Notes: generated by a model not told the origin, from the letters alone. Numbered from the stretch's first letter, positions 2,795 through 11,274 are shown. The stretch: 16,325 bases of DNA from a virus (IMGVR_UViG_2529292981_000039), one strand, 5' to 3'. A program made the numbers and translations.

Positions 2795-5456
2795 TTGCAT
2801 ATTCCTTAGCCCAGCGGGGCAGTGATAACGTCTTAATAGCTGGCCATTCATTGGTATTGAGGCAGTCAGCCAGGGTTCGCAGATTGCGGTGATATTCCAG
2901 CTGACCTGCCAGTTTTGCTTCTTCGCCCATCATGAAAATTTCAACCGGATAACGTCCGCATTCAATAGTTGTGCTGGCAACCAGAAAAACGAAAGTTGGC
3001 TGCACTCCAAACTGTGCTTCATAACCGTCACTGTAGAATGCATCCTGAACGTGATAGCGGTAGTCGTAATAAGCGGTTTTGAATCGTTGAATATCCGCCG
3101 TAGTTTTCACGTCCATGATCCAGTGAAATTCAGGGATAATTTTGTCCGGACGGCACCGACACAAAATTCCTGTTTCAGGATCTTCCCAGTAAATTGATGA
3201 TTCAGCGTGTCCGGCGCTTTCAACAAGCCATTGCCCCAGCGGCAAAGCCATAACGCTTTGATACATGAGTTCAATTTTCAGACCTTCTTCCGCAGTGATA
3301 ACCGTTTTTCCTGTGCTTGCGCATTCCATCAGAAACGCTTTCTCTTCTTCTTTTCCGGCGTTTGTACGGCGGTTAAATTCAGGTGCTACGATAAAGCGGT
3401 TACTGAATTCTTCCGGTTCAAGTACCCGGCAGTGGAAAGCGGTTCCTAAATCGAGCGTTTTTGTCTTTGTGTTGTCCACGGGGGCATTTTTACGCCACAA
3501 ATACAGTGCCGGAGTATCAGCAATGTCATCGAGCTGAGACTTACTGACACCGGGACCTACGTGGTAATTCTCATTCGAAATTCCGTAATAAATACCTGGC
3601 TCTATGTCTTCTACGATTACGGGATCTGCGACTTCGCCAGTTTCATCACTGCAATCGCGATGCGGATCGCTGCCAGCATTCTCATTGTGCGGATGTTCAG
3701 CGCCTTCCATTTCCTCCGGATCATTTTCCTTAGCTTCAACCTGATTCTCTTCATCGAATGTTTCCTGGTATGTTGCGTCGCCCATCACCGCGCCACAATC
3801 AGGGCAGTTGCCGCCACTCCTCTGGCCGCAGGCGGTGCAGATCTTTTCCGGTTCCTGTTGCACTACTGGTTCAGGTTGTTTCGTTTCTGGCTCGTTTTGT
3901 TGCGTATTTGGGCTGTTCTGTTCCGCTTTCTGGTCGTTCTGTTCCGTTTCTGGCTGATTCTGGTACACAGAATCGCGGGTCTGGATCCCCTTAATCCATT
4001 TCGGATCATTCGGGTCGCTAATCCCTTCAACAAATTCTCCGCGAGAGGCAGCCAGCAATTTGTCGGCATCGACAGGATTTTTGGGCGGAATGGTTTTCCG
4101 GGCTTCATGGAGTTCTGCCCGCAGTTTCTGATATTTCGCATCAACAGAATTTACCTGTGACTGAGCATCCAGCGGCTGCGTGTCCTGATGATGTTCAGTT
4201 GCATCCGGTTCCACTGTTTCAGCCGTTGCCTGTTTATCTGCCATTGCGCAAGATGGTTGCGGTTTTTCTTCACCATCGTGTTTTCCTTCTTCTGTTACAC
4301 GCTGCGGCATCGGGGCAGAGGAACGACCGCAGGCAATATCCACGATTTCCGGATCAGGGTTGGCATGATCGGTTTCAATCAGCACCTTGTTCAGATATTC
4401 AGTGACATGCGCAGGGATAACCTCGATCCCAATTGGTGCTTCTTTTACGGACGCAACCACGATGGCGCGGGAATAATCCAGCCCGCCAGGCATGGTGATG
4501 AATTTGTCGCGGAAAACAGAAAAGGGCGGTTTATTTTCAGCGATAATTTCCTCGACACGTTTAGCGTGTGCCGGATGAAGGTTATAAATATCCACATCCA
4601 TTGAACGGGCCAGAACGCCGGTGGCTACATCTCGTGCGAGTGATGTCTTATCATGTTTGAATCCTTCACCACGATCGGTAATATTTCCGCCGCCAGCGTT
4701 AGCGCCGGATGGCGTGCGGCTGATGCGTGAAACACGATTTCCTTTCATCCACTCTTTTGTAAGCAGACCGCGATCGGTGTAGTCAGCGCCCAGGTATGCT
4801 TCGATAAAAGAGGTCATCAGTCCCAGGTCCGAATTTACGGGGGCGGGGAAAACTTTGTCAGTGTCTCGCACCAGTTTGTACAAATCCCGAATCTCCAGCG
4901 GTTCGAGTTGCACTGCTTTATTTGAGATGGCCAGCGCGGTAACGGCGGGAAGTTTTTCATCCTGTGCGTTATGTAATGCGCGCAGTTTGTCCAGTGAAAC
5001 GTGCGTGAGCGGTTTTTCGCTGTTGTGTTGCGCCAGCCAGCGAACAGGCAGAATCTGACCTGAAACCGGAAGAAGCATATTCTCCTCAATCTTAGCCATG
5101 TCTTCGCCGTTGACGTTGGTATTGTCAGTACTGGCTGGTTTGTCCGGAACAGAGGGCGCGATAAGTATCATTGTGATACCATCTTCTCCGCCTTTTTCGT
5201 ATCGGTTGCAGAATTCAGTATCAAACACACCTTCCGGTGGAAGGTCATTCACAACGGGTAAATGGACGCGGATGGGTTTTTTAAAATCCTCTTCGTCAAA
5301 TCCGGCATCGTCCATTGCAGCAATGCAGCGTGAAACCGCAACAGAAAGTTTTTTTGCCTCTGTCCAGAAAAAGCCGCCTTTGATGCCGAGGCGTTTTCTG
5401 GTTTTATCATTTTTCGCGTCGCAATACAGAGCGTAATTTTCTTTATCAGTACTCAT
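2787..5456 (-). CDS. recE: RecE exonuclease VIII, 889 aa, with a divergent N-terminus and a low-complexity Q/E/P/N linker
   Basis: The central and C-terminal parts match K-12 RecE as I recall it (e.g. [51 protein letters not shown]); the C-terminal nuclease domain is present. Confidence 0.93.
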
Positions 5457-5536
5457 TGATAAACCTCATAACTATTTTAAGGTTGAGCGAACCCCTGCCA
5501 TTGCTGGCATAAATTCAGTTTCGAATAGTCAGTTAG

Positions 5537-5707
5537 TTAAAGTTCGTGTGCCATCTGGTCTTTTTCGGCACAATTTTCACTACAATATTTTTTCATTTCC
5601 GTCGTTGGGATAACTCCACGCATGAAATGAAGTGGTCTTTTAATACTTTTGCTTTCTTCAATTCCTTTATTGCAAAGGTGGTAAGCACATTTTATTTTCT
5701 TAGTCAT
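5537..5707 (-). CDS. ydaE: YdaE-like small Cys-rich (probably metal-binding) protein, 56 aa ([12 protein letters not shown]...YCSENCAEKDQMAHEL); not in the supplied ORF track because it is under 60 aa
   Basis: Found by translating the minus strand myself. Four Cys in two pairs; the start overlaps the racC stop. Resembles Rac YdaE as I recall it. Confidence 0.6.
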   Translation of the reverse strand: MTKKIKCAYHLCNKGIEESKSIKRPLHFMRGVIPTTEMKKYCSENCAEKDQMAHEL

Positions 5708-5928
5708 CACCATGACTCCGCCTTTACAGGTAAACCATCACGACCGAGGAAGACTTTAATCATGCAGTCAGAAATGCATGTTTTTGTAGTCAGGCTACGA
5801 ATATAAAGTTTTCGCTTTTTAATATTGTTTGCCGAGGCGATATATGTCCGACCTTCATGAAGAACATAATCGCCAGGAGTCACACACTGACGTGGTATTT
5901 CATCAGTTCCGAAGTGATGAGCAATCAT
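5707..5928 (-). CDS. racC: RacC-like protein, 73 aa
   Basis: [29 protein letters not shown]... resembles Rac RacC; lies between recE and ydaE as in Rac. It is shorter than the 91 aa I remember for K-12 RacC, so the C-terminus may differ. Confidence 0.6.
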
Positions 5929-7693: not shown

Positions 7694-8113
7694 TTACTCC
7701 GGTGGGGGATTATCTTTAAGCCTGCCTCTCAAATATTTTTCTACATACTCATCGATTTCTTTTAGCCGGACTTCAAATAGCTCAATCATTCGTTGTTGTT
7801 CTGAGCCCGGTAGCTGGTTAAACAACTCAAGAAGTTTTCGTTGGGATTCATTTAACCACAATTCAGAAGATTCCTGTTCTCCAAAGAGGAGCTCAGGAGG
7901 AGATATGCCAAGTGCCTTTCCCAATACGACAGCGTCATGCACTCCAACATTTCTGCTACCCGCCTCATAGTTACCTATACGCGATTGCGTCCATCCGCAG
8001 ATTTCAGCAAGTTTTCCTTGAGATAAACCAAGCTTCTGCCTGCGCTCTTTAAGACGCATTGCAATTTTGTCATTGAGCCTACTAGCGGCAATTTTTTCGT
8101 TTTCTTTTTCCAT
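7694..8113 (-). CDS. Prophage immunity repressor (CI-like, XRE-family HTH), 139 aa, with no LexA/S24 autopeptidase domain
   Basis: HTH motif (LGLSQGKLAEICGWTQSRIGNYEAG) near the N-terminus; divergent from a cro-like gene; too short, and without a Ser/Lys dyad region, to be a self-cleaving repressor. Confidence 0.85.
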   Translation of the reverse strand: MEKENEKIAASRLNDKIAMRLKERRQKLGLSQGKLAEICGWTQSRIGNYEAGSRNVGVHDAVVLGKALGISPPELLFGEQESSELWLNESQRKLLELFNQLPGSEQQRMIELFEVRLKEIDEYVEKYLRGRLKDNPPPE

Positions 8114-8209
8114 TGCATCCTTGTATCACGAATCGTGATTTACACAAAACACAAAACAGCTTGACCATATAACACAAGATGTGTTTAAAATTGTCATCGG
8201 AGGTTTTCA
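8114..8209. promoter_or_regulatory. Divergent repressor/cro promoter-operator region: perfect 15-bp palindrome ATCACGAATCGTGAT (8125-8139), palindrome AACACaagatGTGTT (8171-8185), candidate rightward -35 TTGACC (8161-8166)
   Basis: Palindromes read directly from the sequence. GGAGG at 8199-8203 precedes the cro ATG at 8210. Confidence 0.6.
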
Positions 8210-8452
8210 ATGAACAAAATTTCAACATATCGAAAACAGCTTGGGCTGTCTCAAAGACAACTTGCTGTTCAGTTAGGGTGGATACAAAGCCGACTGGCAA
8301 ATTACGAAGCAAATTTTCGTACCCCTGGACTAGAGGAGTGCAGAAAAATTGTTTCTACCCTTAATCGGCTTGGCGCTCATTGTGGACTTGACGATGTATT
8401 CCCCCCAGACGGTAAGCATAGCGAAAACAGCATAGGAGCGGTTGATTCATGA
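8210..8452 (+). CDS. Cro-like HTH regulator (YdaS-like), 80 aa
   Basis: HTH (LGLSQRQLAVQLGWIQSRLANYE); good RBS; first gene of the rightward operon, opposite the repressor. Confidence 0.8.
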   Translation: MNKISTYRKQLGLSQRQLAVQLGWIQSRLANYEANFRTPGLEECRKIVSTLNRLGAHCGLDDVFPPDGKHSENSIGAVDS

Positions 8453-8871
8453 AAATCAGGCATGAGCACATCGAATCAGTGCTGTTAGCCCTGGCAGCCG
8501 AAAAAGGGCAGGCGTGGGTCGCTAACGCAATTACTGATGAATATCTGCGCCAGGGGGGCGGCGAATTGCCCCTGGTACCAGGCAAGGACTGGAACAATCA
8601 GCAGAATATCTATCACCGTTGGTTGAAAGGTGAAACGAAAGCGCAAAGGGAAAAAATTCAGAAACTGATCCCTGCGGTTCTGGCAATTCTTCCGCGCGAG
8701 CTGCGTCACCGACTCTGCATCTTCGATACCCTGGAACGCCGTGCATTACTGGCGGCGCAGGAAGCGTTGAGTACGGCAATTGATGCGCATGATGATGCAG
8801 TCCAGGCCGTTTACCGGAAAGCACATTTCAGCGGTGGTGGGTCGCCCGGTGATTCTGTCGTAGTGCATTGA
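8449..8871 (+). CDS. ydaT: YdaT-like protein (CII-like regulator, formerly proposed toxin), 140 aa
   Basis: MKIRHEHIESVLLALAAEKGQAWVANAITDEYLRQGGGELPLVPGKDWNNQQNIYHRWLKG... matches Rac YdaT as I recall it; start overlaps the cro-like stop (ATGA). Confidence 0.8.
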   Translation: MKIRHEHIESVLLALAAEKGQAWVANAITDEYLRQGGGELPLVPGKDWNNQQNIYHRWLKGETKAQREKIQKLIPAVLAILPRELRHRLCIFDTLERRALLAAQEALSTAIDAHDDAVQAVYRKAHFSGGGSPGDSVVVH

Positions 8872-8916
8872 TTGAAATTAATCGTGCCGGATTGTTTTGT
8901 TCGGTATCAGTTAAAT

Positions 8917-9357
8917 GTAACGCTGCGAGCGTTACAAGGTGAAAACAAATGGCTTCAAACTGGATAAAGCTCGAGGTTATTACGCCGGATAAGCCGGAAA
9001 TATTCAGGCTTGCTGAGATTCTGAATATTGATCCAGATGCCGCATTAGGGAAGGTTATTCGCTTCTGGGCATGGGCGGATCAACAAATGATAGACGGTAA
9101 TGCAGATTGTAACGCTCGCGGCGTTACAAAAAGTGCAATAGATCGCATCTCTTTTATGGCTGGTTTTGCTGATGCGTTAATTCAGGTTGGATGGCTGGTC
9201 GAAAATGACGTTGGGCTTTCTCTACCTAACTTTGAACGCCATAACGGAAAAAGCTCTAAAAAACGGGCGGTTACAAACGAGCGAGTTACAAAAATACGTG
9301 AACTGAAACGAAAAGGTAACGCTGCCGGCGTTACACAAACGGATCAAAAAGCGTTAC
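8917..9357. repeat. Iteron-like array: three copies of the 19-bp palindrome GTAACGC-N5-GCGTTAC (8917-8935, 9119-9137, 9316-9334), plus direct GTTACAAA half-sites (9269-9276, 9284-9291) and GCGTTAC at 9351-9357
   Basis: Read directly from the sequence. One copy is just upstream of the ydaU-like ATG and two are inside the gene, where they encode the repeated G/A/R-V-T peptide motif. Confidence 0.6.
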
Positions 9358-9737
9358 CAGAGGAAGAGGAAGAGGAAGATCTAAATACTGATCTCCCCCT
9401 AAATCCCCCTCGCCAAAAACGAGCGTCTAAAAAATTCGAGCCGGAGGCTATTGAGCTGCCCGATTGGTTGCCGGAAACACTCTGGCATGAGTGGGTCCGG
9501 TTCAGACAGGCATTGCGAAAACCGATTCGAACGGAGCAGGGCGCTAACGGGGCGATACGGGAACTGGAAAAATTCCGTCAGCAGGGTTTTACACCTGAGC
9601 TGGTGATTCGAAACAGCATCGCCAATGAATACCAGGGCCTGTTCGCGCCGAAAGGTGTTCGGCCTGAGACGTTGCTCCGACAGGTTAACACCGTCTCGTT
9701 GCCGGACAGTGCGATCCCGCCAGGCTTCAGGGGGTAA
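8949..9737 (+). CDS. ydaU: Replication initiator-like protein (YdaU-like, DUF1376-type, lambda O analogue), 262 aa
   Basis: Sits directly upstream of the DnaC-like loader, as O does relative to P in lambda; contains the internal iterons and an acidic EEEEEED stretch. Family assignment from memory. Confidence 0.7.
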   Translation: MASNWIKLEVITPDKPEIFRLAEILNIDPDAALGKVIRFWAWADQQMIDGNADCNARGVTKSAIDRISFMAGFADALIQVGWLVENDVGLSLPNFERHNGKSSKKRAVTNERVTKIRELKRKGNAAGVTQTDQKALPEEEEEEDLNTDLPLNPPRQKRASKKFEPEAIELPDWLPETLWHEWVRFRQALRKPIRTEQGANGAIRELEKFRQQGFTPELVIRNSIANEYQGLFAPKGVRPETLLRQVNTVSLPDSAIPPGFRG

Positions 9738-9743
9738 CAGACC

Positions 9744-10490
9744 ATGAAAAATATTGCGACAGGAGGCGTTCTGGAGCGTATCCGCAGACTGGCCCCACCA
9801 CATGTAACCGCCCCATTCAGAACGGTTGCGGAGTGGCGCGAGTGGCAACTTGCTGAAGGCCAGAAACGTAGCGAGGAGATCAACCGCCTGAATCGTCAGT
9901 TGCGGGTGGAAAAAATTCTGAATCGCTCAGGCATCCAGCCGTTGCACCGTAAATGCTCGTTTGCGAATTACCAGGTGCAGAACGACGGCCAGCGATACGC
10001 GTTAAGCCAGGCGAAATCCATCGCCGATGAACTGATGACCGGGTGTACAAATTTTGCGTTCAGCGGAAAACCTGGTACCGGGAAGAATCACTTAGCGGCA
10101 GCTATCGGGAATCGCCTGCTGAAAGACGGTCAGACAGTGATTGTGGTTACCGTGGCTGATGTTATGAGCGCCCTGCACGCCAGCTATGACGACGGGCAGT
10201 CAGGCGAAAAATTTTTGCGGGAACTGTGCGAAGTGGATCTGCTGGTTCTTGATGAAATTGGCATTCAGCGCGAGACAAAAAACGAGCAGGTGGTGCTGCA
10301 CCAGATTGTTGATCGCCGGACAGCGTCGATGCGCAGCGTGGGGATGCTGACAAACCTGAACTATGAGGCCATGAAAACATTGCTCGGCGAGAGGATTATG
10401 GATCGCATGACCATGAACGGCGGGCGATGGGTGAATTTTAACTGGGAGAGCTGGCGTCCGAATGTCGTCCAGCCAGGAATTGCGAAGTGA
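9744..10490 (+). CDS. ydaV: DnaC-like replicative helicase loader (IstB-like AAA+ ATPase), 248 aa
   Basis: Walker A ([15 protein letters not shown]) and Walker B (LLVLDEIG) motifs; position after the initiator gene. Confidence 0.9.
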
Positions 10491-10512
10491 TTTTTACCGG
10501 GAGGAAATTTTA

Positions 10513-11274
10513 ATGGAAACCGTTTTTGGTGCACTGAAAGCAATGGGAAAAGCCACGTCGGTAGAACTGGCTGCGCGACTTGATATCAGTCGTGAAGAAG
10601 TGCTGAACGAGCTTTGGGAACTGAAAAAGGCTGGATTCGTTGATAAAAGCGTATACACCTGGCGTGTGGCCGATAACAACGTTCAGCAGGAACAGCCAAT
10701 GCAGGCAGAACTGCCGGAAGAAACCACCACGGCAACAGTAGCGAAAATCTCAGAGTGCGATTTAACCGCGACGATTGAACAACGCGGACCACAAACGGCG
10801 GATGAACTGGCTACGCTGTTCGGTACAACATCCCGCAAAGTTGCTTCAACGCTGGCAATGGCAATCAGCAAAGGACGCCTGATTCGCGTAAACCAGAACG
10901 GTAAATTTCGTTACTGCATACCGGGCGATAATTTACCAGCAGAGCCGAAAGCAGCATCGGTAGCGGAAACTGATGGTAAAGCCTTTCCTCAGCCTGCATG
11001 TGTTGCGTTACCAGTACAGGAGGCTGCAACACAGGAAGATATTAAAACAGAAACTGTGGCGGACATTGTGCAGTCGCTGCCATCGTTTACTGCAACGCGA
11101 TCTGATGATTTGATTTTGTCATCGCTGCATATGGCAAACCGTGAACTGCGTCGGGCGAAAAATCATGTCCAGAAGTGGGAGCGTGTCTGCGCCGCGCTGC
11201 GGGAGCTGAACAAGCATCGGGATATTGTTCGACAGATTACTGATTTTTCCCGCCGTGTTGCATCGGAAAAGTGA
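10513..11274 (+). CDS. Hypothetical lambdoid prophage protein with two tandem winged-helix-like segments (possibly DUF1627), 253 aa from [10 protein letters not shown]...
   Basis: GGGAGGA lies 7 nt upstream of the ATG at 10513. The track ORF starts at 10462 but that start overlaps ydaV and lacks an SD. Confidence 0.55.

Follow-up and report, generated by a model that had tools for sequence, protein, structure and literature searches.

The palindrome GTAACGC-N5-GCGTTAC, which occurred three times within and just upstream of the replication initiator gene of a Rac-like prophage, probably forms the binding sites of the N-terminal domain (N-domain) of the surrounding initiator and marks the replication origin of the prophage. 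The origin core likely consists of the third palindrome, an adjoining half-site and a purine tract (9316-9379), and we infer that initiator binding, opening of the tract and the start of replication take place here.

The window, by which we mean the whole stretch of DNA analysed (16,325 nucleotides), is a Rac-like prophage of E. coli: the 2.1 kb tested showed 100% identity to E. coli strain 2011C-4251, and a segment match covering at least 80% of these 2.1 kb was found in 678 of 5,426 complete E. coli genomes. Its genes were arranged as follows:

First genes, in this order: integrase, recT, recE, rha and repressor (7694-8113, minus strand)
8210-8452: cro-like HTH gene
8449-8871: ydaT/CII-like gene
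8949-9737, plus strand: initiator gene (262 aa), between ydaT and ydaV
9744-10490, plus strand: ydaV, DnaC-like (NCBIfam PRK12377, 1e-153; DnaC, 3e-91; Pfam IstB_IS21)
3' of ydaV: DUF1627 and DUF977 genes

The product of ydaV is a DnaC-like helicase loader and the presumed partner of the initiator. The longest ORF of DUF1627 (10462-11274 in the window) began 51 nt before the start annotated by RefSeq (5114-5875 in locus L001) and overlapped the end of ydaV. The elements in and around the 5' half of the initiator gene were as follows:

8870-9375, plus strand: mosaic specificity module (spacer, N-domain coding region, palindromes, third half-site and purine tract)
8917-8935: site 0, GTAACGC-TGCGA-GCGTTAC, non-coding, 13 nt upstream of the ATG and abutting the Shine-Dalgarno sequence AAGGTGA
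9097-9103: degenerate half-site GTAATGC, 12 nt upstream of site 1, in a lineage-specific 12-nt insertion
9109-9127: site 1, GTAACGC-TCGCG-GCGTTAC, in the N-domain coding region (codons C-N-A-R-G-V-T)
9270-9277 and 9285-9292, plus strand: GTTACAAA pair, weakly half-site-like
9316-9334: site 2, GTAACGC-TGCCG-GCGTTAC, in the interdomain linker
9351-9358, plus strand: third half-site GCGTTACC, direct repeat of the right arm of site 2
9359-9379, plus strand: purine run AGAGGAAGAGGAAGAGGAAGA, 21 nt, all purine, starting 1 nt past the third half-site
9378-9393: GATC-N8-GATC pair at the module junction, also found in K-12 Rac

An exact search of the window returned exactly three copies of the palindrome, and no further copy was found in the whole window when up to two mismatches were allowed; 0.06 copies were expected from 200 dinucleotide shuffles, none of which reached three. 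Two of the copies had 8-bp arms (TGTAACGC...GCGTTACA). Seven of the eight GCGTTAC heptamers in the window fell within 8917-9357, against 1.6 expected for the whole window, and half-sites with at most one mismatch numbered 10 in 8872-9375, against 1.6 expected from the window density. An earlier note on this DNA had listed the same three palindromes; the copies were real and the coordinates of the outer two were right, but the middle one, placed at 9119-9137, was wrong by 10 and lies at 9109-9127. Its additional GCGTTAC at 9351-9357 was confirmed, and the purine-rich tract that it mentioned proved to be an uninterrupted 21-nt run. On the other hand, the direct half-sites that it placed at 9269-9291, although present as the GTTACAAA pair, were 1 nt off and matched weakly at 5-6 of 7 positions (6 of 7 for GAGTTAC at 9283); the V-T codons of this pair were not conserved in more distant relatives in the protein alignment. 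Nor are the sites, which the note called iteron-like, a tandem iteron array: they are split into two or three stations at distances of ~190-210 bp (192 and 207 bp in the window).

Site 0 lies between the ydaT stop codon and the Shine-Dalgarno sequence of the initiator gene, and sites 1 and 2 were in the same reading frame here, both encoding xNAxGVT (G-N-A-x-G-V-T at site 2). At 9097-9120, this lineage carried a 12-nt (4-codon) insertion relative to the other members of the N-domain family, which looks like a tandem duplication of half-site plus spacer (GGTAATGCAGAT and TGTAACGCTCGC). In many insertion-bearing relatives, GTAACGC was perfect in both copies, including the counterpart of the degenerate half-site at 9097-9103, giving three half-sites at a 12-bp phase.

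Relatives of the N-terminal ~115 residues were gathered from GenBank phages, IMG/VR and GTDB (one genome per species), and gave a set of about 140 distinct N-domain sequences or loci (141 or 140 by count). Their hosts were Enterobacterales, Pseudomonas, Xanthomonas, Ralstonia and other Burkholderiales, and Vibrio, together with metagenome-assembled genomes (MAGs) labelled Planctomycetota, Verrucomicrobiota and others. At protein identities as low as ~45% (45-57%), the same palindrome recurred inside the gene at two positions that were homologous between loci, one at +149 and the other at about +347 to +385 relative to the ATG; the sites of this lineage are at +161 and +368 because of the 12-nt insertion. 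Site 1 was present in 127-130 and site 2 in 114 of the about 140 distinct loci, at a site-to-site distance of 189-264 bp without strict helical phasing. Site 0, at -31 to -43, was confined to one Enterobacterales subclade (E. coli/Shigella, Erwinia, Mixta, Serratia, Winslowiella and Pantoea), in which the arms were fixed and the spacer variable; most relatives had no intergenic spacer at all and kept the in-gene sites alone. In complete genomes, the palindromes were confined to the initiator gene (TL-2011b, 2 of 2; epsilon15, 2 of 2), and are therefore not the regulon of a general regulator.

The earlier note had asked for conservation of the repeats in homologous prophages beyond coding constraint, and this was found. 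In the N-domain alignment, two codons with their third positions inside the arms of site 1 ended in T almost throughout (Gly in 97% and Val in 93% of sequences), whereas the commonest base of the other 22 conserved four-fold columns reached only 29-70%. The arms carried ~2 bits of information per position, against 0.2-0.7 bits at the centre of the spacer. Furthermore, site 2 was used in all three reading frames (71, 34 and 9 loci), and encoded V-T-x-x-A-L in Klebsiella phage ST11-OXA245phi3.2, Enterobacter phage BUCT554 and E. coli phage TL-2011b. These comparisons indicated that the palindromes are under selection at the DNA level and are not a by-product of coding.

Both sites of one genome had identical arms in 96 of 111 loci, and where the arms varied, all sites of one genome usually changed in step. 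The variants were GTCACGC...GCGTGAC in 13 loci that seem to belong to several lineages; GTTGCGC...GCGCAAC at locus L120, which had four half-sites; CTAACGC...GCGTTAG at locus L182; and GTCCGC-N7-GCGGAC in the more distant group of epsilon15, SPN1S and BUCT711. A second IMG/VR scan, which also added variants, revealed mixed arms (one deviant arm) in a few loci. Since the gene neighbours varied (48 upstream and 37 downstream clusters) and the C-terminal domain itself fell into 15 clusters, the N-domain was the only constant companion of the sites. The pattern points to one sequence-specific reader per element, and this reader is most likely the N-domain of the initiator.

Among the protein columns, only the residue that site 1 itself encodes separated GTCACGC-type from GTAACGC-type loci. 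The co-variation between protein and site seen within the close family thus comes from site 1 alone, and, given also the few mixed-arm loci, we do not claim a recognition code. GTCACGC arms turn the site 1 codon from AAC (Asn) into CAC (His), and the GTGACGC arms of locus L213 make it GAC (Asp); arm and codon variants of site 1 were found at L010, L122, L154, L161, L167, L168, L173, L177-L180, L184, L204 and L213. Since this codon lies inside the site, a change of the site 1 arm changes the protein as well. One possibility is that the Asn/His/Asp residue is a specificity determinant, in which case one base would alter both site and reader.

In epsilon15 gp42 (L176, 35233-35285 and 35512-35552), each station consisted of four GTCCGC/GCGGAC half-sites. 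Those of site 2, two forward and two reverse, were evenly spaced by 11-13 bp, whereas the last half-site of site 1 stood 22 bp further on; the place of site 1 in the N-domain was +66, compared with +149 in the GTAACGC group. The GenBank record of epsilon15 annotates repressor, IHF and RNase III sites, and nothing at the palindrome stations.

The DNA past site 2 was conserved as well. The third half-site, in direct orientation and 4, 5 or 16 nt past site 2, was found in 104 of 114 loci, and changed with the arms in variant lineages (L120 and epsilon15). The purine run that follows it was often (GAGAA)n and had a median length of 21 nt in the family, whereas the runs of control 90-nt windows had a median of 5 nt and reached 15 nt at the 99th percentile. 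When loci were aligned on site 2, positions +30 to +70 showed an AT content of 0.61-0.66 and a purine content of 0.80-0.85 in low-GC and high-GC hosts alike; in high-GC hosts, the AT content of the tract was 0.61 against a background of 0.40. Arginine in the tract was encoded by AGA/AGG in 90% of cases in high-GC loci, compared with 12% elsewhere in the same genes (p = 3.5e-45), and in 70% versus 26% in low-GC loci; the corresponding test on Glu/Lys codons was only marginal. These results indicated that the purine tract is held at the DNA level throughout the family. An argument from reading frame was dropped, since (GAGAA)n is translated into E/K/R residues whichever frame is read. At site 2 of epsilon15, the order was GTCCGC, GTCCGC, GCGGAC and GCGGACC, followed by AGAGAAGAGAAGAGAAGAGAAGA; as epsilon15 shares this layout in spite of a different half-site, the purine tract is independent of arm specificity.

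The purine run at 9359-9379 is a candidate unwinding, single-strand-binding or R-loop element. It was not classed as a classic AT-rich unwinding element at this locus: the tract in the window had an AT content of 0.55-0.57, and its 40-nt duplex energy was about one standard deviation above the mean, with no pronounced minimum in the stability profile. The least stable 40-mer of the initiator gene was at 8998-9037, away from the tract.

The 262-aa initiator is labelled 'hypothetical' in RefSeq. It matched PHROG 2509 (phrog_2509), 'replication initiation protein', with an E value of 4.2e-87 (residues 1-262 on profile positions 1-277), a name that is an annotation and not a tested function. No Pfam match (E <= 1) was obtained for the protein or for the N-domains of 10 relatives. 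The protein is composed of a DNA-binding-type N-domain (~aa 1-100), a linker whose DNA contains the putative origin core, and a DnaT-like domain (~aa 170-262). An AF2 model of the initiator showed a topology of HTH plus β-hairpin, with weak winged-helix matches. In a phmmer search against PDB, residues ~170-262 aligned with residues 92-179 of E. coli DnaT (2ru8, E 4.9e-5; 9zbt, E 1.3e-4), including the terminal VNTVSxPDSxIPPGFRG; the Pfam model of the DnaT C-terminal domain (PF17948) was below threshold for the window protein and matched 5 of 11 relatives. By these alignments, the C-terminal ~90 residues are homologous to the single-strand-binding C-terminal domain of E. coli DnaT.

Compared with K-12-type Rac (L002) by blastn, homology to the window stopped at 8869 and resumed at 9376, with 92-93% identity on both sides. 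The limits of the swap are the end of ydaT and the end of the purine tract; the whole module at 8870-9375 is missing from K-12 Rac, where the DNA of the ydaU N-domain is found instead. In lambdoid O genes, likewise, the N-domain and its sites are exchanged as a unit before a common C-terminal domain. The slot ydaT-initiator-ydaV is the same in both prophages and the C-terminal ~165 residues are 63% identical, whereas the N-terminal ~95 residues are unrelated (DUF1376 in YdaU) and the repeats differ in sequence and layout. BLASTP with K-12 YdaU aligned residues 96-262 only (63% identity over 179 aligned residues). When a profile of the N-domain was compared with the N-terminus of YdaU by hhalign, the probability was 0.2%, and no Pfam match to DUF1376 was found in the N-terminus of the initiator. 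The term 'YdaU-like', which the earlier note had applied to the DNA-reading part, is therefore appropriate only for residues ~96-262, the N-domain having no similarity to DUF1376.

At the same linker position, K-12 ydaU had repeats of its own: TGTTCAAACA at 2334 and 2367, and inverted TGTTTGAACA at 2389 (L002). A degenerate copy of the repeat was seen at 2298, and an A-rich stretch and GATC-N-GATC followed the repeats (2298-2400). These linker repeats are likely the iterons of an oriJ-type origin. Rac has been reported to carry an active origin, oriJ (PMC3945230); its position at the sequence level was not found in the literature searched.

A close parallel is the origin of lambda, where O binds iterons that are imperfect inverted repeats, and where a pair of them with the AT-rich tract is enough for unwinding (PMC7466680). 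Direct reading of the lambda O gene showed four 18-bp iterons and, ~20 nt beyond them, a purine run of 18 nt, likewise on the sense strand. As in lambda, the putative origin lies within the initiator gene, in the linker between a site-reading N-domain and a recruiting C-terminal domain; ~19-bp inverted repeats in the gene are followed by an AT-biased tract (purine run of 18 nt in lambda and 21 nt here); and the N-domain and its sites move jointly as a swappable module. The tract beside the last site is AT-rich and purine-asymmetric in both, its AT content being modest in the window. On the other hand, the N-domain here is unrelated to that of O and has no Phage_rep_O (PF04492), one station lies within the coding sequence of the DNA-binding domain itself, and a DnaT-like C-terminal domain with a DnaC-like loader stands in place of the lambda partner P. 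Lambdoid iterons vary from one close phage to the next, but the arms here are nearly constant across phyla. One argument against an origin is the dispersal of the sites: known lambdoid origins have tandem iterons, four in lambda, while two to three stations ~200 bp apart were found here, an array of three to six adjacent iterons was absent, and only site 2 had an adjoining third half-site.

Iteron-plasmid Reps (RepA of pPS10, RepE of F and π of R6K) use inverted and direct half-sites about one helical turn apart, and distant sites may cooperate via looping. The initiator here resembles them in its inverted and direct half-sites and possibly in a winged-helix reader, to judge from the weak fold matches. 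It differs in that no sequence relationship was detected, the sites are inside the gene instead of beside it, and DnaA boxes did not occur nearby (none in 8500-9800 with at most one mismatch). E. coli DnaT, to which the C-terminal ~90 residues are similar, acts at abandoned forks and lacks a domain for sequence-specific duplex binding, whereas here a DnaT-like domain is fused to a putatively site-specific N-domain. The C-terminal domain of DnaT binds single-stranded DNA in the preprimosome (PMC13377028).

The earlier note had proposed an origin bound by a YdaU-like initiator, as in lambda. Except that the N-domain is not YdaU-like, this is the best-supported reading, on the grounds of DNA-level selection, co-inheritance with the N-domain, concerted arms and the purine tract. 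In the mechanism that we propose, dimers of the initiator would occupy the palindromes, whose two half-sites are 12 bp apart centre to centre. Site 1 and, in this lineage, site 0 would be auxiliary stations that raise the local initiator concentration or assist looping or wrapping, and the site 2 station, extended by the third half-site, would destabilise or expose the purine tract. The purine/AT-biased tract beside the last half-site would open, the DnaT-like C-terminal domain would bind the single strand and, together with the DnaC-like YdaV, host DnaB would be delivered. GC skew, which tracks transcription direction in temperate phages, says little about where an origin lies. No experimental demonstration of binding or origin activity was found for any family member in the open-access literature searched.

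A more specific proposal, conceivable but doubtful, is that the family is a 'sequence-specific DnaT', whose N-domain tethers the DnaT-like, single-strand filament-forming domain beside the purine tract. The tract is kept all-purine on the transcribed-sense strand, and transcription from the early promoter would therefore yield a purine-rich RNA. Either this RNA would form a stable R-loop or the tract would open without one; the displaced strand would then be coated by the DnaT-like domain, and DnaB would be handed over via the DnaC-like loader. Firing would then reuse the logic of the restart primosome instead of that of DnaA or lambda O-P.

The palindromes might also serve autoregulation only, the initiator or another repressor limiting transcription of its own gene while replication starts elsewhere. 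Site 0, in a short intergenic spacer against the ribosome-binding site, is suitably placed for this; dimeric Reps of iteron plasmids repress their own genes through inverted repeats of this type; and confinement to the initiator gene fits self-regulation as well as an origin. However, no sigma-70-like promoter was found near site 0, the sole one in 8100-9800 being a PR-like site at 8191-8220, and most relatives, without the intergenic spacer, kept only the in-gene sites. Autoregulation alone would furthermore leave the DNA-level conservation of the third half-site and purine tract, and the parallel with the lambda origin, unexplained. As the sole function it therefore seems unlikely, whereas autoregulation in general, alone or alongside origin function, is possible.

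It is very unlikely that the palindromes act as hairpins in RNA or single-stranded DNA (in mRNA stability, translation control, or primosome assembly and single-strand initiation) and not as duplex sites. Each would fold into a 7-bp stem closed by a loop of 5 nt, site 0 lies directly against the Shine-Dalgarno sequence, the initiator has a DnaT-like C-terminal domain, and primosomes assemble at hairpins; a consensus scan also called site 2 terminator-like on the minus strand (9334-9316, stem plus CTTTTCGTTT). An element selected for structure only would keep its pairing, but here the arm sequence itself was near-invariant across phyla and switched in concert, and unpaired half-sites at an 11-12-bp phase accompany the palindromes. 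No Rfam match was found in 8000-10000 (E <= 1), and no T-run followed the stems on the sense strand. The minus-strand terminator is probably a chance call, since its T-rich tail is lineage-specific coding sequence.

That some other host or phage protein binds the sites, their link with the initiator gene being incidental, is similarly improbable. Binding by the initiator is an assignment made from comparative data, with no independent specificity-determining residue found, which leaves room for such a factor; the hosts, however, span several phyla, the flanking genes and even the C-terminal domain vary, and a conserved host factor would not allow element-specific arm variants. Finally, the explanation that a repeated peptide N-A-x-G-V-T happens to give the palindrome, which could appeal to the shared frame and peptide of both in-gene copies and to the place of site 1 within a conserved G-N-A-x-x-V-T-K motif, is refuted by frame usage and synonymous-site data and has a negligible chance of being right: site 0 encodes no protein, all three frames are used at site 2 (with V-T-x-x-A-L in Klebsiella, Enterobacter and TL-2011b phages), synonymous arm positions are fixed, and epsilon15-like relatives have site 1 elsewhere in the domain.

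An origin within the initiator gene is already classical. What appears to be new is an initiator family without a Pfam model, the layout of two stations, one of which is inside the coding sequence of the DNA-binding domain, near-identical arms across phyla, the conserved junction of half-site and (GAGAA)n, and the DnaT-like fusion. No published description of these sites was found in open-access text, including a search with the motif string (which returned unrelated papers), nor under YdaU, oriJ, epsilon15, the replication regions of non-lambdoid Stx phages or Bcep22-like phages. If confirmed, the proposal would define both the origin and the recognition code for a family of phage and prophage initiators that is very widespread and extends over about an eighth of complete E. 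coli genomes, epsilon15-like and CP2-like phages, many phages of Pseudomonas and Burkholderiales, and MAGs of Planctomycetota and Verrucomicrobiota. The signature of two in-gene palindromes ~200 bp apart, followed by a half-site and purine run, would allow the origin to be located by inspection, the cis/trans pair would be compact enough for phage-derived replicons, and origin-specific initiation would be linked to the DnaT/restart machinery. The sites also provide an unusually clean overlap of protein-coding and DNA-binding-site constraints, with natural specificity variants.

Two further features were seen around the module junction. GATC occurred six times in 8872-9420, which is in the top 2% of 550-nt windows, and two of these flank AT-rich 9380-9390; the cluster may be relevant to Dam/SeqA control. 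Both GATC-N-GATC and a C-tract lie past the junction in K-12 Rac as well. In the window, a C5-TAAAT-C5 motif, CCCCCTAAATCCCCC (9398-9412), was located just 3' of the GATC pair and codes for P-L-N-P-P where the shared C-terminal module begins; its counterparts were CCCCCCCTAAATCCCCCCC in K-12 ydaU (L002, 2463-2480) and CCCCCCTAACCCCCC in Klebsiella-type relatives.
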